Shown here: positions 4,083 through 27,314 of the stretch, piece by piece
Layout: every line of letters begins with the position of its first letter
How positions within the stretch are numbered: position 1 is the stretch's first letter
Source of the DNA: Xanthomonas campestris pv. campestris str. ATCC 33913
GTDB lineage: Bacteria > Pseudomonadota > Gammaproteobacteria > Xanthomonadales > Xanthomonadaceae
Assembly: GCF_000007145.1 (NCBI RefSeq)
Contig: NC_003902.1
Span: forward strand, 907,436 to 939,435
DNA: 32,000 nt
Reading direction: 5' to 3'
Notes under the pieces: generated by a model
Seen by the model: only the letters and a program-made list of their open reading frames with translations
Told to the model about the DNA's origin: nothing
Databases searched by the model: none
Program-made: the position numbers and the translations under genes

Positions 4083-4480
4083 CACGCGGCGGCGGTGCGT
4101 CAGCGCATCCACTACGCAATGCAGCTGCGAATCACGTCGCCGCACCGAATTCCTAAAATAGAGACCTGGTAGTCATAAAGATTCATGCACACAAACCGGC
4201 GATTCGGTCTTTCTCATTGCAGGAGCGATGCCAGCGTGACCGCTCGCGCACTTCAACGGCGCACGCCACCCGCCGCGCCCTCGACTATGCGCAATTCCGC
4301 ATCACCCGCGCGTGTTTGCACCGCATCGCGTACGCGTCACCGCACTGAAATATGCCCCGGCCACCATGCGCCGCGCCTGCTTGCAGGTGGCGCGCCGAGG
4401 AGCCGGTCGCGTCGAATGCCCCCACTTCCCGGTGGTCGTCATGTAGAGGCATGGCAGGCCGCTGCACTTTTGGATCTTTC

Positions 4481-7252
4481 ATGATGCGTCGTTGTGTGTT
4501 GTTGCGTCCCTCGCGCCTGTCGCAGGCGCTGTGCCTTTCGTTGTGCATCGTGGGTGGCCATGCCGCTGCGCAAGACACCCAGGCCAACGCGCCCGCGCAG
4601 GGCCAGATGGCCACCTTGGACAAGGTCACCGTGGCGGCCACGCGTTACAACGCGACCGACATGCAGATGGCCGCCACCAACACCGTCAATGTGCTCTCTG
4701 CCGACGACCTCAAGACCACCGCGGTGCACAACGTGGCCGAAGCGCTGGGGCTGATGCCGGGCGTCAATGTCATCAACACCGGGCAATCGTATTTCGGCGG
4801 CATCGACGGTGCCGCGCGTGGCGAGGGCATGTTCTCCTCGGTACGCGGCCTCAATGCCGAATACAACGTCAACCTGATCAACGGCGTCAACGTCGCGCAA
4901 GGCATGCCGTACAGCCGCGGCGTGCAACTGAGCCTGCTGCCGCCCTCCGGCTTGCAGACCATCGTGTTGAACAAGACCTCCACCGCCGACATGGATGGCG
5001 ATGCGATCGGCGGCACCATCGATTACCGCACCCCCAGTGCGTTCGATTCGCCAGACCGCCGGGGCGGCAGCATCACCCTGAGCGGGCGCATGGAAAGCCG
5101 CGCGCGTGATTACGGCGAGTCCGGGCTGGGCAGTGGTGCCGCCGGCGATTGGCATGCGCGCTTCGGCGCCGATGGCCAATTCGGCGTGGCCGTCAGTGCG
5201 TACTACGACGAGCGCCATTTCGTGAACAGCGAAGTGGCCGGCGCCTCTGCCGCGCGCAGCGATGGCTCCTGGGAATTTGCCCGCACCGATGCCAGTGGCG
5301 CGCTGGCGGCAGGCACCGATTCGCAGGACGCGTTGCAGAGCACCGGCGTGAACATCGGTTATTCGCAAGGCGATACCCGCCGCTACGGTGGCAACGCTGC
5401 ATTCGACTGGCGCGTGGACCCCAGCCTGCATCTGTACGCCCGCATGACCTACGCGTTTGCCAAGACCGAACAGAACACCGGCTACACGCAATTTGTGCCG
5501 GCCAATGTCAGCTATACGCAGATCGGTACCAGCGGCATCTACCAGCCGCAGATCAATCGCGTGGCCGTGCGCTACTGGTACGAAACCAACCCGGAAGAAG
5601 CAGACCTGGCCACCATCCAGTTCGGTGCCGAGAAACAGCTGGGGCACTGGACGTTCGCACCGAATGTGTTTTACGGCACCGGCAATAACGATCGCCCGGA
5701 CCATGTGGAAATTTCCGCGCGCAACGATCAATACAGCTCCACCAACTTTGCCTACGGTGCCAACCGCTTCATCAGCTACGACGGCGACGGCTTCCCGATT
5801 CCGTTGCTGACGCCGGCGATGCAGGCGCAGGCCTCGGATGTCGGCAGCCTGTTTGCACGGCGGACGGGGCAGATCTCCAAGCAATACAGCGGCCAGGACA
5901 AGGGCGGCGGCAAGCTCGATGTGAGCTACGACTTCGACGACGGCGTGCTGAGCCGGATTGCATTCGGCGTGAAGTATGTGGACAGCTCGCGCAGCTTCAC
6001 CGACCGCGACTGGACCAACGCCAAGTACACCGATGGCACCTTGCTGCGCGATACCGGCCTGGTGGCGCAGCGCTACGATGCGGTGTACCCGGGCCAGTAC
6101 GCGCTGCCCACGCTGCGCCTGAGCAACGATGCCCTCAATGCCTTGATCGCGCGCACGCTCACGCCGGAGAGTTTCGACAGCTGCGGGCGGCTGGCGGTGA
6201 ACAATCTCAACTGCAACACCATGCGCGCCACCGAAGCGGTGAGCGCGGCCTATGTGATGGCCACGCTGCGCACCGGCAACTGGGAAATCCTCCCCGGCCT
6301 GCGTTTTGAGCACACCAGCATCGACAACACCTTCTGGGCGCAGCCAGCCGCTGTGGGCGGCGTGGAGCAGGTGGGCGCCTTCGCCAACAACCAGACCCGC
6401 TACAACGTGGTGCTGCCCAGCGTGTTCGTGAATTACCGCCCCGACGGCGATGGCGCGGTCTATCGCGGCTCGGTGTGGACCAGTTACACGCGCCCGGCCT
6501 TCGTACAACTCGGCGGGGGCCGCTCCACCGATATTTCTGCCGATGGCCAGACCACCATCACCGAAGGCAACCCGGATCTGAAGCCGATCAAGTCGCTCAA
6601 CGTGGATCTGTCCGGCGAGTGGCAGAACGATGCGGGCGGCCACGCCATGCTGGCCGGCTACTACAAGCGCCTCACCGACTACATCTACGAAAGCGGTTCG
6701 GATGCCGCCAACGCCGGCGAGAGTGGAACCGCCAGCACGCGCTTCGTGCGCCCGCAAAACGGTGGCGACGGCCGCGTGCTCGGCATGGAAGCGGCGGTGC
6801 GGCAGACCTTCCAGGGCCTGCCGGCACCGTTGGACGGCTTCGGCATCGGTGGCAACGTGACGCGCCAGACCACGCGCGTGGATCTGGGCGAGGAAGGCTT
6901 CGCGCACGAGCGCATCCAGAACGCGCCGGACCTGCTCGCCAACGCCGAGGTGTTCTACGAAAAAGGCCCGTGGTCGGTGAATCTGAGTTACCACTATTCC
7001 GGCGAATACGTGTCGGTCTACGACTACCTCAACCAGGGCGCGCGTTGGGACAACCTGTGGATCAAGCCAATCACCCGCGTGGACCTGCACGTGGGCTACG
7101 CGCCCACCGACCATCTGCGCGTGGACCTGTCCGTGGCCAACCTCACCAGGCAGCACAGCTACTGGGCGCACGTGGGCCACGACAACACAGCCATCTCCGA
7201 CATCGTCGATTCCGGCATGACCAGTCTGGTGACGGCCAAGTATGTGTTCTGA
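4481..7252 (+). CDS. TonB-dependent outer-membrane receptor
   Basis: I chose the start at ATG 4481 (MMRRCVLLRPSRLSQALCLSLCIVGGHAAAQ signal peptide); the ORF track extends to 4352. There is a TonB-box-like ATLDKVTVAATR and plug-domain motifs (LGLMPGVNV, VRGLN). The long barrel ends ...LVTAKYVF with a terminal aromatic residue. Confidence 0.9.
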   Translation: MMRRCVLLRPSRLSQALCLSLCIVGGHAAAQDTQANAPAQGQMATLDKVTVAATRYNATDMQMAATNTVNVLSADDLKTTAVHNVAEALGLMPGVNVINTGQSYFGGIDGAARGEGMFSSVRGLNAEYNVNLINGVNVAQGMPYSRGVQLSLLPPSGLQTIVLNKTSTADMDGDAIGGTIDYRTPSAFDSPDRRGGSITLSGRMESRARDYGESGLGSGAAGDWHARFGADGQFGVAVSAYYDERHFVNSEVAGASAARSDGSWEFARTDASGALAAGTDSQDALQSTGVNIGYSQGDTRRYGGNAAFDWRVDPSLHLYARMTYAFAKTEQNTGYTQFVPANVSYTQIGTSGIYQPQINRVAVRYWYETNPEEADLATIQFGAEKQLGHWTFAPNVFYGTGNNDRPDHVEISARNDQYSSTNFAYGANRFISYDGDGFPIPLLTPAMQAQASDVGSLFARRTGQISKQYSGQDKGGGKLDVSYDFDDGVLSRIAFGVKYVDSSRSFTDRDWTNAKYTDGTLLRDTGLVAQRYDAVYPGQYALPTLRLSNDALNALIARTLTPESFDSCGRLAVNNLNCNTMRATEAVSAAYVMATLRTGNWEILPGLRFEHTSIDNTFWAQPAAVGGVEQVGAFANNQTRYNVVLPSVFVNYRPDGDGAVYRGSVWTSYTRPAFVQLGGGRSTDISADGQTTITEGNPDLKPIKSLNVDLSGEWQNDAGGHAMLAGYYKRLTDYIYESGSDAANAGESGTASTRFVRPQNGGDGRVLGMEAAVRQTFQGLPAPLDGFGIGGNVTRQTTRVDLGEEGFAHERIQNAPDLLANAEVFYEKGPWSVNLSYHYSGEYVSVYDYLNQGARWDNLWIKPITRVDLHVGYAPTDHLRVDLSVANLTRQHSYWAHVGHDNTAISDIVDSGMTSLVTAKYVF

Positions 7253-17745: not shown

Positions 17746-18191
17746 AGCGGCACGGCTGAGACGTCGCAGCGCTTGGTGGCGGTGTTGGGGTCCTGGCGAG
17801 CGGGTGGTTTGTTTCCGGAACGGCTTGGCCGCTGGCGTCGAGCGCATCGTGCCGCCCAGGCCGGTTTGGACGCACGCACGGCCTGCGCGCGTCCCCAATT
17901 CCGCCCGCAGACCCGGCGCTGAGCGGCTGTGCCGGTCAGCTGGTGCGAGCGCTGCGCGCCGCATCGATGACAAGCCGTACATCGTTGCCACAGTTAGGTG
18001 GCCATGACCGCAAGGAAGCCAAGTCCGGGGGCAGCGTCATTGCCTGCGCACTGCCGCCATCCAGGTCTCGTCGCCGCAAGCCCGATGGGGCATACGAGAT
18101 GCGCTTCATTGCGCACACGTACGCCAAAATGCCGAGCTTCGATTGACAGTTCCAATCGAAAACATGACCCAATGCAAAGATCCAGCCATCC

Positions 18192-18237
18192 AAATGAGAA
18201 TGGCTCTTGATCAATAAATGAGAATGGTTATTATTTG
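18192..18237 (+). promoter_or_regulatory. Putative Fur box(es) overlapping a sigma70-like promoter of the hemP operon
   Basis: An AT-rich island in GC-rich DNA. The direct repeat AAATGAGAATGG occurs at 18192 and 18216. ATAAATGAGAATGGTTATT matches the GATAATGATAATCATTATC Fur consensus at 12/19 positions. Candidate -35 TTGATC (18207-12) and -10 TATTAT (18229-34) have 16-nt spacing. A GGAGA RBS sits at 18253-57. Confidence 0.6.
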
Positions 18238-18265
18238 TCTGGCCAACCGACTGGAGATCCAGATC

Positions 18266-18463
18266 ATGACCGCTCATCCCGTGCTGCTCCGCTCCGAACC
18301 GGTCAACCTGCGCGACCGCGCTGCGCCGCGTGCCGTTCCTGCCGAAGACCTCTTCAGCAGCGAGGCGCTGCTCAAGGGCCGTCGCGAAGTGCTGATCCAG
18401 CATGGCGACCGCATCTATCGCCTGCGCCACACCAGCAACGACAAGCTGATCCTGACCAAGTAA
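18266..18463 (+). CDS. hemP: Hemin uptake protein HemP family (small regulator)
   Basis: ATG 18266 follows GGAGA. The 65-aa product ends HGDRIYRLRHTSNDKLILTK, matching the HemP C-terminal signature (Y-x-L-R-x-T-x-x-G/D-K-L-I/L-L-T-K). Confidence 0.85.
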   Translation: MTAHPVLLRSEPVNLRDRAAPRAVPAEDLFSSEALLKGRREVLIQHGDRIYRLRHTSNDKLILTK

Positions 18464-18608
18464 GTCCTGGCGAAGGCCGCGCCTGCGCGCGCCTTCCGCT
18501 GCCTGCCACGGGCGTTGCCATCGCCGTCCGTGCGTTCTCTCTCCACCCTCGGCTAACGGTCGCGGCGATTGCCGTCTGCGTGGCCGAGGGTTCTCCCAAA
18601 GGTTACCG

Positions 18609-20840
18609 ATGATCCGCCTGCATCCGCTGGTGGTTGCGCTGTCACTGGCGCTGCCCGTTGTTCCCCTGTGCGCCATTGCTGCCGAAGCCGATGCCGGCGC
18701 TGCCGCGGCGCGCGACGTGCATGACTTCGACCGTCTGCAGGTCACCGCCACGCGCACCCAGCGCGCCTTGGTGGAGGTGCCGGGCACCGTGGATGTGATC
18801 GACCGCGAGCAGCTGGACAACCAGTTGGTGCGCGAGCTCAAGGATCTGTTCCGTTACACGCCCGGCGTGTCGGTCACCAGCACCAGCGGGCGCTTCACCG
18901 GTGCCAGCGGCGTGCGCATCCGCGGTCTGGATGGCAACCGCGTGGCGATCCTGGTCGACAACGTGCCGGTGTCGGACACCTTCAATTTCGGCAGTTATCT
19001 CAACGCCAACCGCAATTTCGTGGACCTGGAAACGCTCAAGCGGGTCGAGGTGGTGCGTGGCCCGGCCAGTTCGCTGTATGGCTCCGATGCACTGGGCGGT
19101 GTGGTGGCCTTCGTGACCAAGGATCCGTCGGATTACCTCAGCGCCGACAAGCACAGCTATGTGGGATTGAAGTTCGGCTACGAAGGCGACTGGAACGGCC
19201 TGTTCGCCGGCGCCACCGGCGCATTCGGTGGCGAGCGCTGGAGCGGCATGGTCGCGGTGAGCCATCGCCAGGGTCAGGAAGCGCAGAACCAGGGCGACAA
19301 CCGCAGCCGTAACTACACCCGCACCGCACCCAATCCGCAGCAGGTCGATGGCCGCAGCGTGCTGGGCAAGCTGGTGTACGCGCCCAACGCGCAGCAGCGC
19401 TTCAAGCTCACCGTGGAGGGCAATGAAGACGACGGCCGCATCGAGGCGTTGAGCGGTATCGATGCGCGCAGCCCCAGCGCATCGCAACGCATCCTGTCGC
19501 AGGACGGCCGCGACCATCAGACCCGCGCGCGGGTGTCGCTGCGCCACGAACTGGATGCGCTTGATACCGCGCTCGCCGACGACCTGTTCTGGCAGCTCTA
19601 CCGCCAGGACAGCGCAAGCCTGCAGCGCACCGACGAGTTGCGCGGCAACAACACGCGCCGGCACAACGAGCATCACTTCGACCAACGCGTCTACGGCCTG
19701 TTGGTCAATGCGCACAAGGCGATCGACACCGGCACGCTGCGGCACGACATTACCTACGGGCTGGAAGGCTCCTGGACCGACACCCGCGAGAAGCGCGATG
19801 GGTATTCGCTCAACCTGGCCAACGGCGCGGTGAGCAAGCTGGTGGGGCAGGACGTGTTCCCGGTGCGCGATTTCCCGATGAGCGAGACCACCAAGCTGGG
19901 CGCGTACGCGCAGGACGAAATGCGGCTGCTGGACGGACGGTTGTCGCTGATTCCCGGCGTGCGCGTGGATTATTTCCGGCTGTCGCCGCGCGTGGATGAC
20001 ATCTTCCGCCAGGACAATCCGGGCGTGGCCGCCGAAACCATCGACGAGCAGCAGGTGTCACCCAAGTTCGGCGCGGTGTGGCGGTTCTCGGATGCGTGGT
20101 CGGCGTATGCCAACTATGCGCACGGGTTTCGCGCGCCGCCGTACAACGACGTCAATATCGGCTTCACCAATCTGCAGGCGCGCTACACCGCCATCGCCAA
20201 TCCGGACCTGAAATCGGAAACCAGCCGCGGTGGCGAGCTGGGCCTGCGCTTCAATGACACCGTCGGCTACCTCGGCGTCAATGTGTATTACACCGATTAC
20301 CGCAACTTCATCGAATCGTATGCACCGGCCGGCGTCAACGCCGAAGGCTTGCTGCTGTTCCAGTCGCGCAACGTGGACGATGTGGTGATCAAGGGTGCCG
20401 AGGCGCGTGCCGGTGTCGACCTGGGCGCGCTGGCCGGCTGGCAGGGCTGGTCGGTCAATAGCGCGGTGGCGTATTCGCAAGGCGACAACCTCACCGACGA
20501 CACGCCGCTCAATTCGGTTGACCCATTGCGCGGCACGCTGGGCGTGGCGTTCGACAGCGAGCGCTGGGGTGCGGAAGTGATCGGCACGTTCGTGGCGCGC
20601 AAGCGCCGCCCGCAACTGGCCAGCTATTACACGCCTGCCGGTTACGCCACGCTGGACCTGATGGGCCACTGGGAATTCGCACCGGGTGCCAAGGTCACCG
20701 GCGGCATCTTCAATCTTGCCGATCGCCGCTATGTCGACTGGAACGCGCTGCCCAACGGCACGCTGGACAGCAGCACGGTGCTCGATCGCTTCACCGGCGC
20801 CGGGCGTACCGCCTCGGTCAGCCTCGCTGTGAGCTGGTAG
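18609..20840 (+). CDS. TonB-dependent heme/hemoglobin receptor family protein
   Basis: 743 aa. Signal peptide ...LCAIAAEA. TonB box/plug (FDRLQVTATRTQ, VDVIDRE, RGPASSLYGSDALGGVV). FRAP...NPDL boxes (YAHGFRAPPYND...IANPDLKSE) are characteristic of heme receptors. The C-terminus is ...SLAVSW. Confidence 0.88.
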   Translation: MIRLHPLVVALSLALPVVPLCAIAAEADAGAAAARDVHDFDRLQVTATRTQRALVEVPGTVDVIDREQLDNQLVRELKDLFRYTPGVSVTSTSGRFTGASGVRIRGLDGNRVAILVDNVPVSDTFNFGSYLNANRNFVDLETLKRVEVVRGPASSLYGSDALGGVVAFVTKDPSDYLSADKHSYVGLKFGYEGDWNGLFAGATGAFGGERWSGMVAVSHRQGQEAQNQGDNRSRNYTRTAPNPQQVDGRSVLGKLVYAPNAQQRFKLTVEGNEDDGRIEALSGIDARSPSASQRILSQDGRDHQTRARVSLRHELDALDTALADDLFWQLYRQDSASLQRTDELRGNNTRRHNEHHFDQRVYGLLVNAHKAIDTGTLRHDITYGLEGSWTDTREKRDGYSLNLANGAVSKLVGQDVFPVRDFPMSETTKLGAYAQDEMRLLDGRLSLIPGVRVDYFRLSPRVDDIFRQDNPGVAAETIDEQQVSPKFGAVWRFSDAWSAYANYAHGFRAPPYNDVNIGFTNLQARYTAIANPDLKSETSRGGELGLRFNDTVGYLGVNVYYTDYRNFIESYAPAGVNAEGLLLFQSRNVDDVVIKGAEARAGVDLGALAGWQGWSVNSAVAYSQGDNLTDDTPLNSVDPLRGTLGVAFDSERWGAEVIGTFVARKRRPQLASYYTPAGYATLDLMGHWEFAPGAKVTGGIFNLADRRYVDWNALPNGTLDSSTVLDRFTGAGRTASVSLAVSW

Positions 20841-20845
20841 CGGCC

Positions 20846-21487
20846 ATGCCGATCGCCCACCCAATGCCGCTCGCGCATGCGCGCACTGCCCATCGCGCCT
20901 TGCCGCAACCACGGCAGCTGATGGCCCTGGGCACAGTGCTGTGCGTCTATCGCCCTTCGCTCGGCGATGAACGCGATGGCTGGCAGCATGCGGTGTCGGC
21001 GGCAGCGTTCCGCCAGGTCAACAGCGATGGCCTGCGCGAAAGCATCTGGTTCTTCGATGCTGGCGGCAGCAGCTGCTGGCGCCTGTGCCTGCTGCCCGAC
21101 AGCGATTTTCTGGCCTGGGATCGCCTGGTCTCGCGGTTGCCGGCGTTGCCGATCGACGGCCAGGAACTAGGCGTGGGCGAGCGCCTGTGGCGGCGCATGG
21201 CCGGGCGGATGCGTGGCGACAGCTGGCGGCTGAGCGCGCTGCGGCTGCATGCCGGTAGTAGCCGTGATCGCCCGCTGGGCGCCACGTTGGCCAGTGTCTC
21301 TGCGCTCGGCGCGGAAGTGGCCGCACGCCTGGCGCGCGAAGAAGGCATCGACGGCCGCGTGGCGGTGGATGATTGCTGCTGCGCACGCGCCGCCGCCCTG
21401 CGCCATGCTGCTGCCAGCGCCACTGCGCCGGGCACCGGCAGTGATCCGCAGGCCATGACGGCCTCCTTGTTGCGGCTGCGCCGCTGA
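20846..21487 (+). CDS. Hypothetical protein, heme-locus associated, no signal peptide
   Basis: 213-aa ORF starting 5 nt after the TBDR stop. It has strong GC3 and window-typical codon usage. I recognise no motif. It contains DDCCCARAA (three consecutive Cys). Met26 (20921) is an alternative start. Confidence 0.7.
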   Translation: MPIAHPMPLAHARTAHRALPQPRQLMALGTVLCVYRPSLGDERDGWQHAVSAAAFRQVNSDGLRESIWFFDAGGSSCWRLCLLPDSDFLAWDRLVSRLPALPIDGQELGVGERLWRRMAGRMRGDSWRLSALRLHAGSSRDRPLGATLASVSALGAEVAARLAREEGIDGRVAVDDCCCARAAALRHAAASATAPGTGSDPQAMTASLLRLRR

Positions 21488-21503
21488 CGTTCACCCTTTA
21501 CAG

Positions 21504-22439
21504 ATGAGCCTTCCGATGATCCGAGCGTTTCCCCGTTATCTTGCCGCGGCCTTGGCGCTGTTGCCGCTGGTGGCTGCCGCCGATGCCCAGCGTGACCGTG
21601 CCAGCATCCTGGCGATGCAGGGCGAGTACGCCGTGGACTTTGCCTTCGACGAAACCGTGCTGCTCAAGCCGGGCTACGAACGCGCCTCGGCGATGCGCAG
21701 TGGCGCCAACGAAGTGGTCATCGTGGTGGAAGATTCGCCGCGCAAGGTGGTGCTGCAGCATCTGCTGGTGGACGAGAAAACCAAGCATGTGACCAAGCAC
21801 TGGCGGCAGGACTGGACCTATGAAGCACCACAACGTTTCGAGTTCAGCGCCGAACAGACCTGGCAGGTGCGCGCGCTGCCTGCGGCCGTGACACAGGGAG
21901 CGTGGACGCAATGCGTGTTCGAAGTCAGCGATGCCCCGCGCTACTGCGGCACTGGCCGTTGGGACTATGCCGAGGGACATCCCACCTGGACCAGCGACCT
22001 GAGCTGGCGCCCGTTGCCGCGTCGCGAGTACACCAAACGCAGCGACTACAACGCATTGTCGGTCATCAACCGGCACACGCTCACGCCCAACGGCTGGACC
22101 CACGAACAGTTCAACACCAAGGTGCTGCGCAAGCCAGACGGCAGCCAGGACGCCATCGCCCGCGAGTTCGGTTTCAACGAGTACCGCAAGACCACCGAGG
22201 TGGACTTCGCACCGGCCTATGCATACTGGAAGGGCACGCAGGGCTACTGGGCAAAGGTGCGTGCGCGTTGGGCGAAGTTCCTCGACACACCGCCGGGCCT
22301 GCATCTGAAAACCAAGCCGGACGGCATGGCGATGATCATGCCGATGTTCGAACAGGCCGAGACGGTGCAGGGCGGCAAACGCGTCACCGATGCGCAGATC
22401 GATGCGGTCTTCATGCAGTGGGTGGAACCGGCGAACTAA
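21504..22439 (+). CDS. Hypothetical secreted protein, heme-locus associated
   Basis: 311-aa ORF starting 16 nt after the previous stop. It has a Sec signal (RYLAAALALLPLVAAADA/Q), is Trp/Tyr/His-rich, and has no TM segments after the signal. The start could be ATG 21516. Confidence 0.75.
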   Translation: MSLPMIRAFPRYLAAALALLPLVAAADAQRDRASILAMQGEYAVDFAFDETVLLKPGYERASAMRSGANEVVIVVEDSPRKVVLQHLLVDEKTKHVTKHWRQDWTYEAPQRFEFSAEQTWQVRALPAAVTQGAWTQCVFEVSDAPRYCGTGRWDYAEGHPTWTSDLSWRPLPRREYTKRSDYNALSVINRHTLTPNGWTHEQFNTKVLRKPDGSQDAIAREFGFNEYRKTTEVDFAPAYAYWKGTQGYWAKVRARWAKFLDTPPGLHLKTKPDGMAMIMPMFEQAETVQGGKRVTDAQIDAVFMQWVEPAN

Positions 22440-22471
22440 GCGTGCATCAGCCAACCAGGCATGCAGCTGTC

Positions 22472-22537
22472 GTAGGAGCGCGCTTGCGCGCGAGGGGCAC
22501 TCCCGAGAACGGCCCTCGCGCGCAAGCGCGCTCCTAC
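22472..22537. repeat. REP palindrome (GTAG...CTAC type), copy A
   Basis: 23-bp perfect arms gtaggagcgcgcttgcgcgcgag / ctcgcgcgcaagcgcgctcctac around a 20-nt loop. Confidence 0.9.
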
Positions 22538-22689
22538 GTGCAAGACGGGTTTATTCCTTGAACATCAAGAACGCTGCGACCAGGATCAGCCCGAACGCGG
22601 CCCAGTGGTTTCACTGCATCGATGTGGTTCTCACACGGTGGGGTGGAACCGGCGAACTAGGCACACCGCGAATCAAACATGCCGGTGTC

Positions 22690-22755
22690 GTAGGAGCGCG
22701 CTTGCGCGCGAAGGGCATTGCCGATAACGGCTCTCGCGCGCAAGCGCGCTCCTAC
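22690..22755. repeat. REP palindrome, copy B
   Basis: It has the same arms (gtaggagcgcgcttgcgcgcga ... tcgcgcgcaagcgcgctcctac) with a diverged loop. Confidence 0.9.
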
Positions 22756-22911
22756 GTGCAAGGCAGGTGTATTCCTTGAACGTCAAGAACGCCGCGACCA
22801 GGATCAGCCCGAACGCGGCCCTGTAATTTCACTGCATCGATGTGGTTCTCACACAGTGGGGTGGAACCAGCGAACTAGGCGTGTATCAGCCAGCCAGGCA
22901 TGCAGCTGTCG

Positions 22912-22977
22912 TAGGTTGTGGGTTACACATGACGGGCATTCCCGAGAATGGCCCTCGCGCGCAAGCGCGCTCCTACG
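22912..22977. repeat. REP palindrome, copy C, with the left arm destroyed
   Basis: The right arm ctcgcgcgcaagcgcgctcctac is intact. The left arm is replaced by gtaggttgtgggttacacatgac. Confidence 0.8.
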
Positions 22978-22989
22978 TGCAAGACGGGT

Positions 22990-23343
22990 TTATTCCTTGA
23001 ACATCAAGAACGCTGCGACCAGGATCAGCCCGAACGCGGCCCAGTGGTTCCACTTCAACGACTGGCCCAGGTAGAACGTCGAGAACCCGGCGAACACCAG
23101 CAGGGTGATCACTTCCTGCATGCCCTTGAGCTGCGGAGCGGAATACACTGCGCTGCCCAGGCGGTTACCCGGCACCTGCAGGCAGTATTCGAAGAAGGCG
23201 ATGCCCCAGCTGACCAGGATCGCGATCATCAGCGGCGTGCTCTTGTACTTCAGATGCCCGTACCACGCGAAGGTCATGAAGACGTTGCTGGCGAGCAGCA
23301 GCAGGATCGGATACAGGTAGGCGGTGAAGGGCGCGGTAGGCAT
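22990..23343 (-). CDS. Small DMT-superfamily membrane protein (DUF486 family)
   Basis: ATG 23343 gives a 117-aa product, MPTAPFTAYLYPILLLLASNVFMTFAWYGHLKY...GLILVAAFLMFKE, with four predicted TM segments. FMTFAWYGHLK is typical of DUF486. The track's longer start at 23400 is a GTG. Confidence 0.75.
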   Translation of the reverse strand: MPTAPFTAYLYPILLLLASNVFMTFAWYGHLKYKSTPLMIAILVSWGIAFFEYCLQVPGNRLGSAVYSAPQLKGMQEVITLLVFAGFSTFYLGQSLKWNHWAAFGLILVAAFLMFKE

Positions 23344-23431
23344 GACGGCAGGCGGCGGCAGGACGGGGCCGGCAGCATAAGCCAGCCTCGTTAAGCGCAC
23401 GCGACCATGCCGGCCTAGGCCATAGCAGGGT

Positions 23432-24313
23432 TCAGCGTTGCATGCCCCAGCGGCGTACGGTCAGTCGTTCGATCGCCTGGAACACCACGCCTTCCACCAG
23501 CAGCCCCAACGCGATCACCATGGCCAGGCCGGCGAATACGCGGTCGGTGTACAGCTCGTTGCGGTTCTGGAAGATGTACCAGCCCAGCCCGCCTTGCCCG
23601 GACGTGGCGCCGAATACCAGCTCGGCGGCGATCAAGGTGCGCCAGGCAAATGCCCAGCCGATCTTCAGCCCGGACAGGATCGCCGGCAGGGCCGCGGGAA
23701 TCAGCAACTGCACCACGTAGCGCGGGCCGCGCAGGCCGTAGTTGCGGCCAGCCATGCGCAGGGTGTCCGGCACCGCCTGGAACCGGGCGTAGGTGGTCAG
23801 CGCCAGCGGCCACAGCACCGAGTGCACCAGCACGAACACCAGGCTGCCGGTGCCCAGGCCAAACCACAGCAGCGCCAGCGGCAGCAGCGCGATCGCCGGC
23901 AGCGGATTGAACATGGCCGTCAGCGTGCCGAGCAGATCGCGGCCCCAGCGCGTGGAGGCGGCCAACGCGGTCAGCACGAAGGCCAGCACCACGCCCACCA
24001 CGTAGCCTTGTGCCAGCACCCGCAACGAGGTGCCGACCCGGCGCAGCAATTCGCCCGACAGCAGGCCGGTGTAGAACGCCTGCGCGGTCTGCCACGGGCT
24101 TGGCAGCATCAGATCGTCGGCCACCACGCGCGCGGCCACGTACCAGGCGGCCACCAGCACCGCCAGCACCAGCGCCTTGCGCAACCAGCCAGGCGCCTGC
24201 CAACGCGCCTGTGCATGCACCTGCAGCAGCGCCGGATCCAGCGGCTGCAGCGCGACCTCGTATTCCGGCCGCACCGGCGGGGTTGCCGGCAACGCCGTGC
24301 CGCGCGTGCTCAT
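23432..24313 (-). CDS. ABC transporter permease (nitrate/sulfonate/taurine TauC/SsuC type)
   Basis: The ATG at 24313 overlaps the stop of the upstream ATPase gene (ATGA). The EAA-like loop MAGRNYGLRGPRYVVQLLIPAALP and six hydrophobic segments are present. The product is 293 aa. Confidence 0.9.
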   Translation of the reverse strand: MSTRGTALPATPPVRPEYEVALQPLDPALLQVHAQARWQAPGWLRKALVLAVLVAAWYVAARVVADDLMLPSPWQTAQAFYTGLLSGELLRRVGTSLRVLAQGYVVGVVLAFVLTALAASTRWGRDLLGTLTAMFNPLPAIALLPLALLWFGLGTGSLVFVLVHSVLWPLALTTYARFQAVPDTLRMAGRNYGLRGPRYVVQLLIPAALPAILSGLKIGWAFAWRTLIAAELVFGATSGQGGLGWYIFQNRNELYTDRVFAGLAMVIALGLLVEGVVFQAIERLTVRRWGMQR

Positions 24314-25149
24314 GGCAAGGCCTCGCGTTGACGCACGGCCGGCCTGCGCAGCGGCGCCACTTTGGCATCGTCCAGGGCGGCATCGGGTAGGTCGAACAAC
24401 AGGCGGTGAATGCGCTGCGCGGTCTGCTGGAACGCCACGCTGCCGGCGCTCTGCGGGCCGAACGCATGCGCGTTGAGTTCGGCTCGCACCTGGCCGGGAT
24501 GCGGCGACAACAGCAGCACGCGGTTGCCCACCACCAATGCTTCCTCGATGGAATGGGTGACGAACAGCAGCGTGAAGCGCAGTTGTTCCCACAACTCCAG
24601 CACCTGCTCCTGCATGCGTGCACGGGTGAGCGCATCCAGTGCGGCGAACGGTTCGTCCATCAGCAGCACGCGCGGGCGCATCGCCAGCGCACGTGCAATG
24701 GCCACGCGTTGCTTCATGCCGCCGGACAAGGTGTGCGGGTAGGCATCGGCAAAACCGGTCAATCCCACCTGCGCCAGGCTCTCGTCGGCGCGCTCCCGTG
24801 CTTCGGCACGCGATAGGGTGCGGGTGGCGCGCAGGCCGAACACCACGTTCTCGCGCACGGTCTTCCAGGGAGCCAGTTGGTCGAACTCCTGGAACACCAC
24901 CACCCGGTCCGGCCCCGGTCCGGTGACGGCTGCGCCATCCAGCCGGATCTGGCCCTCGCGTGGCGTCACGAAACCGGCCACCGCCTTGAGCAAGGTGGAC
25001 TTGCCGCAGCCCGACGGACCAAGCAGCACGAAGCGATCCGCCGCGTGCACGTCGAAACGCACCCGATGCGTGGCACGGACCACGCGCTGCGCGGAGGCGT
25101 ATTCCAGGCTGACGTTATCGACCTGCAGCAGTGGCGCGGCGGTGGTCAT
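24310..25149 (-). CDS. ABC transporter ATP-binding protein (TauB/SsuB type)
   Basis: Walker A GPSGCGKST, signature LSGGMKQRVAIARAL, and Walker B LLMDEPFAALD. ATG 25149 is preceded by GGGAG. A GTG at 25152 directly abuts the SBP stop. Confidence 0.93.
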   Translation of the reverse strand: MTTAAPLLQVDNVSLEYASAQRVVRATHRVRFDVHAADRFVLLGPSGCGKSTLLKAVAGFVTPREGQIRLDGAAVTGPGPDRVVVFQEFDQLAPWKTVRENVVFGLRATRTLSRAEARERADESLAQVGLTGFADAYPHTLSGGMKQRVAIARALAMRPRVLLMDEPFAALDALTRARMQEQVLELWEQLRFTLLFVTHSIEEALVVGNRVLLLSPHPGQVRAELNAHAFGPQSAGSVAFQQTAQRIHRLLFDLPDAALDDAKVAPLRRPAVRQREALP

Positions 25150-25152
25150 CAC

Positions 25153-26196
25153 TCAGCTCCCGCCCGCGATCAACGGGTCGTCGAAGAAGTAGTCGCCCAC
25201 CTTCGCGGGCGCCTGCTTGATCGCACCGCTGCGCTGCATGAAGGTGCCCAGTTTCAGCGTGTTTTGCGGCACCACGGTGAACTGCACCTTGGGGTCCTTG
25301 AGGATCTGCAGCACCAGCGCGCGGTCGATGCCCGAGCCGTTGCGTCGCAGGAAAATATCGGTGGCCTGTTCCGGGTGCGCGGTAACGAACTTCGCCGCCT
25401 GATCCAGCGCAGCGACAAAAGCGCGATAGGTCTTGGGGTTGTCGCGGCGGAACTTTTCGGTGGCGTACAACACCGTGGCCGACGATGGGCCGCCTTCGAT
25501 GTCGTAGGAACTGGTCACGATATGCGCGGCCGGATTGCGCGCCAGTTCCTGTTCCTGAAACGGCGGGCTGGCGAAGTGCGCGGTGATCTCGGTCCGTCCA
25601 CGGATGATGGCCGCCGCCGCATCCGGATGCGGCAACGCCACCTGCAGCGGATCGAGCTGATGGGTGCCCTTGTCGCCCCAGCGCTGTTGCGAGGCATGCT
25701 GCAGGAAGCGCGACTGCACCGACACGCCGGTGGCCGGCACCGCGATGCGGTCCTGTGGCGTGAAGTCGCCGATACTCTTGATACGCGGATTGTTGCTGAT
25801 CAGGTAGTACGGAAAGTTGCCCAGCGACGCCACGCCGCGCACGTTCTGGCGGCCACGGGTGCGGTCCCAGATGGTGAACAACGGGCCGACGCCGGCACCG
25901 GCAATGTCGATCGACCCGGTGAGCAACGCATCATTCACGGCGGCACCGCCAGACAGCTGCAGGAACTGCACATCGATGTCCACGCCGGCGGCCTTGCCCT
26001 GCTGCTCGATGAGCTTCTGGTCTTGCGCCACGTCCAGCAGCAGATACACGATGCCGAATTGCTTGGCGATGCGCAGTTTTCCTTCGGCCTGCGCGTGCGC
26101 GCTGTGTAGCAGCGGCAACGCGGCCAGCAACAACCAGGCCATGCGGGGCGCCTTGCGGCGATGGGGGATGGCGTCACCAACAACGGTCAAGCGCAT
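25153..26196 (-). CDS. ABC transporter periplasmic substrate-binding protein (NMT1/SsuA/TauA-like)
   Basis: 347 aa. ATG 26196 has GGAG 8 nt upstream. The signal-like region is ...MAWLLLAALPLLHSAHA/QAEG. Operon context places it with the TauB/C-type genes. ATG 26142 is an alternative start. Confidence 0.82.
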   Translation of the reverse strand: MRLTVVGDAIPHRRKAPRMAWLLLAALPLLHSAHAQAEGKLRIAKQFGIVYLLLDVAQDQKLIEQQGKAAGVDIDVQFLQLSGGAAVNDALLTGSIDIAGAGVGPLFTIWDRTRGRQNVRGVASLGNFPYYLISNNPRIKSIGDFTPQDRIAVPATGVSVQSRFLQHASQQRWGDKGTHQLDPLQVALPHPDAAAAIIRGRTEITAHFASPPFQEQELARNPAAHIVTSSYDIEGGPSSATVLYATEKFRRDNPKTYRAFVAALDQAAKFVTAHPEQATDIFLRRNGSGIDRALVLQILKDPKVQFTVVPQNTLKLGTFMQRSGAIKQAPAKVGDYFFDDPLIAGGS

Positions 26197-26241
26197 GCGA
26201 CGCTCCAGTGGGGAAGGAGAGGGAAACGGCGTGCGTGCAGG

Positions 26242-27144
26242 TCAGAACGGCACGTCGCCTTCGATGGTGGTGCGATTGAGCCGGCGACGCAGATGGTCTG
26301 GCGTGCCGGCCGCCAGATGCATCACCGAGCGGTTGTCCCAGAACACCATGTCGTGCGGCTGCCAGCGGTGGCGATACACCAGCGCATCGCGCGTGCTGTG
26401 GTCAAACAGCGCCTGCAGCAATGCGTGGCTTTCGTCGTCCGGCAAGCCGACGATGCGGGTGGTGAAGTGTTCGCTGACGAACAGCGCCTTGCGGCCGGTT
26501 GCCGGGTGCGTGCGCACGATCGGATGCTGCACCGGTGTGACTTCGGCAATCTGCTCGGCCGTCAACGCTGGGCGCCACGGGTTGCGCGCACGCAGTTCCT
26601 CGTACTTGGCGAGATAACTGTGCTCGGCCTGCCGGCCTTCCACCGCGCGTTTGAGTGCGTCGGGCAGGGTCTGCCAGGCCAGATGCTGGTTGGCGAACAA
26701 GGTGTCGCCACCCTCGGCTGGAAGCTCCTGCGCGTGCAGCAGCGAGCCCAGGCTCGGCGTTTCCTTGTACGACAGATCCGAGTGCCAGTAATGGCCGGCA
26801 TCACCGAGCCCGATGGGCTGGCCGTTTTCCTTGATGTTGGAGACCACCAGCACTTCCGGATGCCCGCGCAGCTGGAAATTGCGCAGCACATGGATCTGCA
26901 ACGGGCCGAACCGCCGGCTGAATTCGACCTGCTGCGCCGGGGTGATGCGTTGATCGCGGAACACCAGCACGTGGTGGTCCAGGTGCGCGCGGTGAAGGCG
27001 CGCGAACGTGTCTGCATCCAGCGGCTGCGACAACGCCAGGCCGATGACTTCCGCACCCAGGGGCGCGTCGAAGGGCACGATCTGCACGCCGGACGCGTGG
27101 CCGTGCGGGTTGGGCGCGCGCGCTGCGGATGTGGCACTGGCCAT
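26242..27144 (-). CDS. tauD: TauD/TfdA-family Fe(II)/2-oxoglutarate-dependent dioxygenase (taurine dioxygenase-like)
   Basis: HxD iron motif in YWHSDLSY, distal His in WDNRSVMHLA, and an Arg near the C-terminus. ATG 27144 has GAGG 8 nt upstream; the track start at 27153 is a GTG. Confidence 0.85.
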   Translation of the reverse strand: MASATSAARAPNPHGHASGVQIVPFDAPLGAEVIGLALSQPLDADTFARLHRAHLDHHVLVFRDQRITPAQQVEFSRRFGPLQIHVLRNFQLRGHPEVLVVSNIKENGQPIGLGDAGHYWHSDLSYKETPSLGSLLHAQELPAEGGDTLFANQHLAWQTLPDALKRAVEGRQAEHSYLAKYEELRARNPWRPALTAEQIAEVTPVQHPIVRTHPATGRKALFVSEHFTTRIVGLPDDESHALLQALFDHSTRDALVYRHRWQPHDMVFWDNRSVMHLAAGTPDHLRRRLNRTTIEGDVPF

Positions 27145-27314
27145 GACGAACACCTCGGAGGCAATGAAGGGCCGCCGGCATGCCGGCGACCAGACACCTC
27201 ACTCTAGGCAGTCGTTGCCAGGCTGCGAACCAACCATTGGCAACTTCGTCATGCGCTGCGGATATATGCAGCGACGGCGGACGCGCACGCGTTGCGGCCG
27301 TGTCCGCCCGAGTG

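Follow-up and report, generated by a model that had tools for sequence, protein, structure and literature searches.

The four genes described here lie in a 32,000-nucleotide (nt) stretch of the genome of Xanthomonas campestris pv. campestris str. ATCC 33913 (contig NC_003902.1, positions 907,436 to 939,435), which is referred to as the window and in which all positions are counted from the first letter. According to the listing of open reading frames (ORFs) and their translations they form a putative haem-acquisition operon consisting of a Fur-box-like promoter followed by hemP, a gene for a TonB-dependent receptor, ORF3 and ORF4. The four genes are co-oriented, the gap between the receptor gene and ORF3 measuring 5 nt and the gap between ORF3 and ORF4 16 nt, and the next gene (22990-23400), which is predicted to encode a DMT_6/DUF486 protein, is located on the minus strand and is therefore convergent. 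A first-pass annotation, made from the sequence alone, had described a tightly spaced unit which ends at a convergent gene and in which two uncharacterised proteins take the place of the transporter and haem-degrading genes of other haem loci; both the spacing and the end of the cluster were reproduced. Since the identical gene order was found in most of the 80 species-level loci compared in this study, the arrangement is not due to chance.

The promoter region (18193-18238, plus strand) combines a sigma-70-like site with a match to the Fur consensus. The -35 hexamer TTGATC (18207-18212) and the -10 hexamer TATTAT (18229-18234) constitute the sole sigma-70-like promoter detected within positions 17900-23500, and the -10 hexamer is overlapped by the site (18220-18238, 13/19) which scores highest against the 19-nt Fur consensus on either strand of the whole window. 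In an alignment with the regions upstream of hemP from 13 other genomes the pattern TTGAc…TGAGAATCATTATCAT was recovered from otherwise unalignable spacers, the element TGAGAATCATTATCAT being kept at 14-16 of 19 positions across genera while its surroundings diverge. The operator is conserved in Xanthomonas, Stenotrophomonas, Pseudoxanthomonas, Lysobacter and Luteimonas, and judging from the aligned sequences this conservation represents a phylogenetic footprint. Furthermore, the motif TGAGAATGG is present twice, at 18196-18204 and 18220-18228, the two copies being 24 nt apart on either side of the -35 hexamer. In the Xanthomonas and Stenotrophomonas promoters the upstream copy is kept as well, and it may serve as a second Fur site or as the HemP site proposed for S. 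maltophilia. One of the S. maltophilia loci (L045) holds the exact published promoter repeat TGATTGTCAACTGAGAATCA, and the orthologous promoter of S. maltophilia was shown to be regulated by Fur and iron (PMC9241770).

The hemP gene (18266-18463, plus strand) encodes a protein of 65 amino acids (aa) which matches the Pfam family PF10636 (6e-18) and terminates in ...YRLRHTSNDKLILTK. The complete reading frame extends from 18218 to 18463 and contains an internal ATG at position 18266, which is the likelier start codon because the upstream ATG at 18218 is situated inside the promoter, with the -10 hexamer lying downstream of it. The spacer of 145 nt between hemP and the receptor gene (18464-18608) contains three GC-rich hairpins, the first of which immediately follows the hemP stop codon and lacks a T-run. 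The fold stability of this spacer is modestly above that of shuffled sequences (z = -2.5), and it might allow hemP to be expressed differently from the distal genes.

The third feature (18609-20840, plus strand) encodes a TonB-dependent outer-membrane haem receptor of the HemA/PhuR type with a length of 743 aa, a signal peptide and the Pfam plug and barrel domains. It exceeds the curated NCBIfam cut-offs of both TIGR01786 (408.8 vs 323.75 bits) and TIGR01785 (346.8 vs 316.85 bits). Its FRAP box was located at residue 507 and its NPDL box at residue 531; no His was found between the two boxes of the receptor, and this residue is only partly conserved in HemA of S. maltophilia, too. The AT-rich Fur-box-like promoter, the 65-aa HemP and the 743-aa haem receptor with FRAP and NPDL boxes had all been named in the first-pass annotation, and they are corroborated by the top Fur-consensus score of the window together with the cross-genus conservation, by the Pfam match and the internal start codon, and by the two located boxes and the NCBIfam cut-offs, respectively.

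ORF4 (21504-22439, plus strand) is predicted to encode a Sec-exported protein of 311 aa, the orthologue of Smlt0797 of S. maltophilia. Its N-terminus is of the Sec type (…LLPLVAA/ADAQ) without a lipobox, and its 12 Trp, 12 Tyr and 7 His residues agree with the exported, Trp-, Tyr- and His-rich protein noticed at first reading. The protein is no longer uncharacterised, as that reading had it: it belongs to the Pfam family PF20311 (DUF6607; 4e-72, 243.3 bits, cut-off 27), and a profile built from 30 ORF4 homologues matched a single structure in the PDB, 8XJC, which is designated as a "haemophore" (E 2.5e-64). The latter is the crystal structure of RhuH of Riemerella anatipestifer, an iron- and Fur-regulated protein (PMC11967795) with which ORF4 shares 41% identity over 257 aa in BLASTP (E 7e-64). 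The AlphaFold2 model of ORF4 (pLDDT 88.5, pTM 0.85) was aligned by Foldseek to 8xjc_A with template modelling (TM) scores of 0.80/0.89, a root-mean-square deviation of 3.0 Å and an E value of 6e-26, and it reproduces both the 11-stranded barrel-like domain and the C-terminal helical domain of RhuH. No family was returned for ORF4 by a search of NCBIfam.

The fold of RhuH was called unique by its authors (PMC11967795). Far behind 8XJC, the next folds detected with the ORF4 model were haem-binding beta-barrels, namely the nitrobindins and Rv2717c (probability about 1.0, target TM 0.45-0.57). This hints that the RhuH fold might be a decorated nitrobindin/calycin-like barrel.

In R. anatipestifer a common Fur box is shared by rhuH and the adjoining haem receptor genes rhuR-rhuA, and RhuH is secreted, present in outer-membrane vesicles and detected in the culture supernatant (PMC11967795). 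RhuH binds haem with a dissociation constant (Kd) of 3.4e-11 M and protoporphyrin IX a million-fold more weakly, it strips haem from haemoglobin, and its gene is needed for growth at 0.5 µM hemin or 0.3 µM haemoglobin (PMC11967795). The haem iron is held by His96, the exchange H96A costing about six orders of magnitude in affinity, and an AlphaFold3 haem model assigns the propionate contacts to Arg143, Tyr144, Arg170, Arg183 and Gln198 (PMC11967795). Five of these six residues, including the sole experimentally validated one, the His, and four of the five propionate contacts, are kept in ORF4. The axial ligand His96 corresponds to His99 within the motif KHWRQDW, and the propionate contacts Arg143, Tyr144, Arg170 and Gln198 correspond to Arg146, Tyr147, Arg174 and Gln202, all five positions being invariant in 30 of 30 aligned sequences. 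Arg183 is replaced by Val187, the position being occupied by Val or Ala in the clade. Moreover, a pair of cysteines (Cys137/Cys148) that is missing from RhuH is invariant in the proteobacterial clade and could correspond to a disulphide of an exported protein.

ORF4 and RhuH thus resemble each other in fold, axial His, four of five propionate residues and a Sec signal without membrane anchor, and both genes are located beside a Fur-controlled TonB-dependent haem receptor, so that the pairing spans two phyla. However, rhuH is divergent from rhuR-rhuA while the ORF4 gene closes the operon of the receptor itself; no RhuA is present in the Xanthomonas unit, and hemP and ORF3 are without counterpart in Riemerella. 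Homologues of RhuH were reported predominantly in Weeksellaceae and Flavobacteriaceae (Flavobacteriales), Lysobacteraceae being unmentioned (PMC11967795). A literature search on DUF6607 retrieved no paper, nor did the literature searches retrieve any paper which ties smlt0797 or Xanthomonas to RhuH or to such a haemophore. Based on these similarities we regard ORF4 as a predicted haem-binding protein of the RhuH family, its haem binding and its final location being inferred.

ORF3 (20846-21487, plus strand) encodes a protein of 213 aa without signal peptide, the orthologue of Smlt0796, for which no signal was predicted by SignalP 6 either (PMC9241770). The leaderless protein and its triple-Cys motif (D175-D176-C177-C178-C179) were found as first described; the view that it is without relatives was superseded by profile, fold and profile-profile comparisons, which all point to a remote homology to the HemS/ChuX domain. 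The Pfam model PF05171 (HemS/ChuX) matched ORF3 with E=0.012 and 16 bits, which is below the cut-off of 24 bits, and only at profile positions 80-128, the last third of the domain; some ORF3 homologues carry a precomputed match to the same family. When the profile of the ORF3 family was compared with all PDB sequences, the top seven hits were HemS, ChuS and PhuS proteins (E 1.6e-3 to 1.2e-2). Likewise, the top nine Foldseek matches of the AlphaFold2 model (pLDDT 79.7) were PhuS, HemS and ChuS structures, ChuX, HutX and other single-domain haem binders related to them ranking next; the scores were weak (E about 1e-3, query TM about 0.3, probability 0.90-1.00). An hhalign comparison of the ORF3 family with ten full-length HemS/PhuS-type proteins, taken from annotated plasmid and chromid records, gave a probability of 94.8% and an E value of 5e-8, the reversed-sequence control giving 0%. 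The fold comparisons of the two proteins had been suggested as a check of their relation to haem, and the matches were haem proteins in both cases: RhuH for ORF4 and, weakly, HemS/ChuX for ORF3.

According to the hhalign alignment residues 21-101 of ORF3 correspond to the final part of the N-terminal domain of HemS (…SiQFFD.G.a..KVy…sD..AW..L). Approximately 25 residues within the domain are missing, among them the IDLR segment, and the entire C-terminal domain of HemS is absent. In HemS/ChuS the distal Arg lies in the IDLR segment and the proximal His in the C-terminal domain. Neither an invariant His nor an invariant Tyr was found in the alignment of the ORF3 family. Because the haem-contact residues of HemS are gone, a functional membership of ORF3 in the HemS family is unsupported. 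The four lines of evidence, each weak to moderate, support ORF3 as a truncated, remote relative of the N-terminal HemS/ChuX domain, and a binding of haem or another haem-related role may be surmised from this distant homology.

ORF3 is similar to HemS/ChuS/PhuS and to ChuX/HutX (PF05171) insofar as these are its best matches by profile, fold and profile-profile comparison, and its gene is positioned directly 3' of the haem receptor gene like hemS/hmuS in classical loci. It differs by its length of 213 aa, compared to about 345 aa of the two-domain HemS, and by a Cys-rich tail. The ORF3 family comprises 251 representatives at E ≤ 1e-3 in 1.84 billion proteins, with a universal core LLPD[ST]D[FY]LAW[DE] (LLPDSDFLAWD in ORF3), and no family was assigned to ORF3 in NCBIfam. 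The six cysteines (C33, C77, C81 and C177-179) are specific to the Lysobacteraceae clade, the CCC tail and the CC pair being present in only part of the family. The CCC motif, which had been pointed out at first reading, was rejected as the defining site of the family, as many members lack it; it appears as a clade-specific C-terminal addition outside the conserved core. An exported protein or lipoprotein was considered for ORF3 as well and was rejected since the hydrophobic residues 25-35 lie within a confident fold (pLDDT above 90) and the residue before Cys33 is Leu instead of the Gly, Ala or Ser of a lipobox.

For the comparison across genomes the best 80 of 348 relatives retrieved in a genome scan with ORF4 were taken as loci, and their flanks were analysed by profile searches. 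All of these best 80 belong to the Lysobacteraceae, with one labelled as Nocardiopsis. The latter (L060, deposited as Nocardiopsis yanglingensis) contains a Stenotrophomonas-type hemP-receptor-ORF3-DUF6607 locus with 75% identity in ORF4 and is probably an assembly contamination. The linkage of hemP, receptor and DUF6607 is retained in most of the 80 loci: Xanthomonas, Pseudoxanthomonas and the S. maltophilia group have the complete order hemP-receptor-ORF3-DUF6607, while ORF3 is missing from an otherwise intact hemP-receptor-DUF6607 array in about twelve loci, which belong to Luteimonas, to several Lysobacter and to S. humi-like strains. Overall, the ORF4 homologue is accompanied by the receptor in roughly 70 of the 80 loci, three contigs being too short to judge and four loci lacking the receptor. 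From these flank patterns hemP, receptor and DUF6607 therefore form the constant core, and ORF3 is an accessory gene that some lineages have lost. The cross-genus identities amount to 71-91% for ORF4, 52-90% for the receptor and 37-73% for ORF3, which makes ORF4 the best conserved protein of the unit. Three of the four distant ORF3 relatives that could be placed on contigs adjoin a gene for a TonB-dependent receptor and/or a DUF6607 gene, and since even distant members share this neighbourhood the association of ORF3, DUF6607 and receptor is old.

The receptor-less lineages are X. arboricola CFBP 7645, Stenotrophomonas sp. MMGLT7, a strain of S. rhizophila and a metagenome-assembled genome of Pseudoxanthomonas. 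Split reading frames were detected in ORF4 of X. populi, in the receptor of X. phaseoli and in ORF3 of X. euvesicatoria (L015, L018, L022). The operon is eroding in some lineages.

The unit in the window is, by gene order and protein similarity, orthologous to hemP-hemA-smlt0796-smlt0797 of S. maltophilia, which was shown to be co-transcribed and regulated by Fur and iron (PMC9241770, Shih et al. 2022). Both have four genes in identical order and orientation, a Fur-box element (13/19 consensus positions in the Xanthomonas operator, 14/19 in S. maltophilia) and no local ABC transporter or oxygenase genes, and the proteins share identities of 77% (HemP), 61% (receptor and HemA), 58% (ORF3) and 75% (ORF4). 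The hosts differ, X. campestris being a plant pathogen and S. maltophilia an opportunistic human pathogen. For the two distal proteins of the window, database entries of X. campestris pv. campestris with 98-100% identity were retrieved. In S. maltophilia hemA is required for the use of hemin, a single deletion of hemP was without hemin phenotype and no homology was reported for the products of smlt0796 and smlt0797 (PMC9241770). The first-pass annotation had named a four-gene operon of the same architecture in S. maltophilia, hemP-hemA-smlt3896-hemU, whose last gene contributes to hemin use. An operon of this architecture does exist, yet the names smlt3896 and hemU belong to another one: smlt3896-hemU-exbB2-exbD2-tonB2 lies elsewhere in the genome as an operon of its own, whose products include a HemO-like protein and the 155-aa membrane protein HemU (PMC11002078). 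The phenotype was likewise attached to the wrong gene, given that the deletion of hemU, unlike deletions of smlt0796 or smlt0797, affected hemin use (PMC11002078) and the deletion of smlt0797 did not (PMC9241770).

Compared to the classical Hem/Hmu/Phu/Chu loci the Xanthomonas locus shares the Fur control, a hemP-type regulator and the TonB-dependent haem receptor, but it has a RhuH-type protein and no ATP-binding cassette (ABC) permease/ATPase or oxygenase. In agreement with the earlier statement that hmuTUV/phuSTUV and hemO are absent, scans of the window's proteins found neither a haem ABC transporter nor a haem oxygenase in the 32 kb, and the locus itself contains neither the periplasmic binding protein nor the full-length HemS of the classical loci.

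Taken together, it appears probable that the unit is a Fur-repressed haem-acquisition operon expressed as a single transcript, with ORF4 acting as a RhuH-type scavenger for the receptor and ORF3 as a cytoplasmic HemS/ChuX-type domain. The Fur regulation, the co-transcription and the function of the receptor, all of which were shown in S. maltophilia (PMC9241770), are transferred to Xanthomonas by orthology. With plentiful iron Fur would occupy the operator overlapping the -10 hexamer, and under iron limitation the four genes would be transcribed together, their expression presumably being tuned by HemP as a small haem-responsive regulator. The receptor would import haem across the outer membrane. 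ORF4 would be exported by the Sec system, bind haem very tightly in its beta-barrel-like pocket via His99 and a propionate clamp of Arg, Tyr and Gln residues, and serve the adjacent receptor as a haem scavenger; such a haemophore would leave the periplasm, for instance with outer-membrane vesicles like RhuH, and would matter mainly at low haem concentrations or when haem is bound to proteins. ORF3 would reside in the cytoplasm as a cut-down HemS/ChuX-type domain and most likely receive or sense the incoming haem. The passage across the inner membrane and the release of iron would be encoded elsewhere, as by the HemU- and HemO-type genes in S. maltophilia.

Several observations weigh against such a scavenger-based operon. 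Single deletions of smlt0796 and smlt0797 caused no defect in hemin utilisation (PMC9241770), and hemP and DUF6607 are kept without the receptor in four loci (L005, L040, L062 and L078). The haem-binding data for DUF6607 come from the Riemerella protein RhuH, one of the propionate contacts of RhuH (Arg183) is Val or Ala in the ORF4 clade, and ORF4 has a plain Sec signal only, with no evident route past the periplasm; the extracellular evidence for RhuH itself largely consists of its association with vesicles (PMC11967795). On the side of ORF3, the distal-Arg segment and the proximal-His domain of HemS as well as any invariant His or Tyr are missing, the Pfam match remains below threshold and the fold match is weak (TM about 0.3). 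With regard to the genetics, the hemin assays in S. maltophilia were performed on agar with 150 µM hemin, which exceeds the concentration that revealed the rhuH defect roughly 300-fold. Haemophores are generally dispensable if free haem is abundant, as in the HasA-type systems. Because 150 µM hemin could mask the contribution of a haemophore, the negative result for smlt0797 does not refute a scavenger.

The location of ORF4 is the point at which the strongest competing explanation departs. Possible, if clearly less likely than release from the cell, is a periplasmic haem carrier that replaces HmuT/PhuT and delivers haem from the receptor to a non-ABC inner-membrane permease of the HemU type. 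The plain signal for Sec and signal peptidase I without lipobox, the absence of a dedicated secretion gene from the unit and the invariant Cys137/Cys148 pair, which fits the oxidising periplasm, are all consistent with it, as is the local lack of a haem-binding periplasmic protein or an ABC transporter for haem. In addition, the HmuTUV homologues of S. maltophilia are reported as not involved (PMC9241770), the periplasmic binding protein of this species is still unidentified according to the authors (PMC11002078), and the vesicles in which RhuH was found enclose periplasmic content in their lumen. On the other hand, RhuH was detected in the culture supernatant and takes haem from haemoglobin (PMC11967795), a Kd of about 3e-11 M lies in the range usual for scavengers, and the loss of a sole carrier should be noticeable even at high hemin, where the smlt0797 deletion showed no effect. 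The periplasmic haem handling originally proposed for the 311-aa protein thus holds insofar as an exported haem handler of the RhuH family is concerned, periplasm and exterior being left as rival locations.

The missing hemin-growth phenotype, with neither of the two S. maltophilia deletions being defective, would also be explained if ORF3 and/or ORF4 buffered or detoxified incoming haem or acted on another tetrapyrrole instead of contributing to iron acquisition. The S. maltophilia authors stress that haem is toxic and that HemP exerts a tight negative control, the nitrobindins, which rank next after 8XJC among the structural neighbours of ORF4, are haem proteins other than transporters, and DUF6607 is retained without the receptor in some genomes. 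We consider this nonetheless quite improbable, given that the rhuH deletion is clearly defective in the use of haem and haemoglobin and mimicked by H96A, that RhuH discriminates a million-fold against protoporphyrin IX (PMC11967795) and that the DUF6607 family is deeply tied to a haem receptor under a Fur box in two phyla. For ORF3, the six cysteines of the Lysobacteraceae clade including DDCCC and the loss of the HemS haem ligands would suit a regulatory or redox partner, such as a Cys-rich metal or iron-sulfur sensor modulating the output of HemP or Fur. Alternatively it might be a backup haem-degrading factor that masks the loss of a HemO-type protein, since the deletion mutant of the HemO-like smlt3896 still grows on hemin and its authors suspect a redundant iron-releasing activity (PMC11002078); the relatives HemS, ChuS and PhuS are annotated as hemin-degrading factors. 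Either role appears unlikely to us: the CCC motif is missing in many members that still adjoin a TonB-dependent receptor or DUF6607, no DNA-binding or known cluster-binding motif was found in ORF3, and the gene is dispensable in about twelve lineages that keep the rest of the operon. The earlier proposal of cytoplasmic handling or regulation by the 213-aa protein is hence retained as regards a leaderless, haem-related protein, while its cytoplasmic location is presumed and its role inferred from remote homology.

Downstream of the operon, 33 nt 3' of the ORF4 stop codon, a near-perfect GC-rich palindrome of 66 nt (22472-22537) forms a hairpin of the REP/GTAG type. The RNA fold of 22436-22560 reaches -78 kcal/mol (z = -8.2), none of 200 shuffled sequences being as stable, and the palindrome likely represents a transcript 3' end or stabiliser common to the operon and the convergent gene. 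The region 22398-23045 consists of three tandem copies of a 218-bp unit with 84% match, in which the palindrome is included. As each unit holds the palindrome together with the ends of both genes (the final ~40 nt of ORF4 and ~65 nt of the convergent DMT_6 gene), the convergent-gene junction itself was duplicated. The copy number at this junction ranges from 1 to about 4 among Xanthomonas species, multiple copies occurring in L002, L003, L012, L025 and L028. In an Rfam scan of 17800-23200 the REP hairpins matched plant microRNA models below threshold only, and these matches were rejected as due to chance.

The remaining genes of the window are unrelated to haem and include those for S-adenosylmethionine synthetase, Dus, a PfkB-family carbohydrate kinase, a nucleoside transporter and an aldo-keto reductase, as well as a TauD-type dioxygenase with an ABC system and an ABC system of the MacB type. 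The genes for the TauD-family dioxygenase, an NMT1-type binding protein, an ABC ATPase and a permease are encoded on the minus strand downstream of the DMT_6 gene (23432-27198) and constitute a sulfonate/taurine-type uptake cluster without relation to the haem unit. A second, larger TonB-dependent receptor (4349-7252, stop-to-stop frame of 967 aa), for which the Pfam plug and barrel domains were matched in a scan against Pfam only, is located 11 kb upstream of the haem unit.

The architecture of the operon had already been published, the ORF4 family is part of Pfam and has a solved and characterised member, and the superfamily of ORF3 is known as well, so that the present results constitute a useful annotation link and not a new system. 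New are the connection between the S. maltophilia operon and RhuH, the prediction at residue level, the definition of the ORF3 family with its co-occurrence and the explanation of the missing phenotype. Two literatures without mutual citation are joined in this way, the papers on the S. maltophilia operon (2022-2025), which still list smlt0796 and smlt0797 as functionless, and the RhuH paper of 2025. ORF4, whose conservation across Lysobacteraceae exceeds that of the receptor, is thereby provided with a testable function and named residues (His99; Arg146, Tyr147, Arg174 and Gln202), and the negative genetics with a simple reason, the use of 150 µM hemin, about 300-fold above the level of the rhuH phenotype. 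In addition, a haemophore-type gene is placed in a plant pathogen, a small HemS-like family accompanying DUF6607 is newly defined, and the results may be of moderate practical value for work on iron uptake in Xanthomonas and Stenotrophomonas. Going beyond this, one may tentatively imagine, as a rather doubtful extension, that Lysobacteraceae import haem independently of ABC transporters by means of a RhuH-type carrier in the periplasm or in vesicles and a Cys-rich, truncated HemS-like protein that handles haem or releases its iron in the cytoplasm. If this were true, ORF4 and ORF3 would be the periplasmic binding protein and the redundant activity for haem degradation which the genetics of S. 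maltophilia has not brought to light, and RhuH-type haemophores would be a cross-phylum family used by plant pathogens and not a speciality of the Flavobacteriales.

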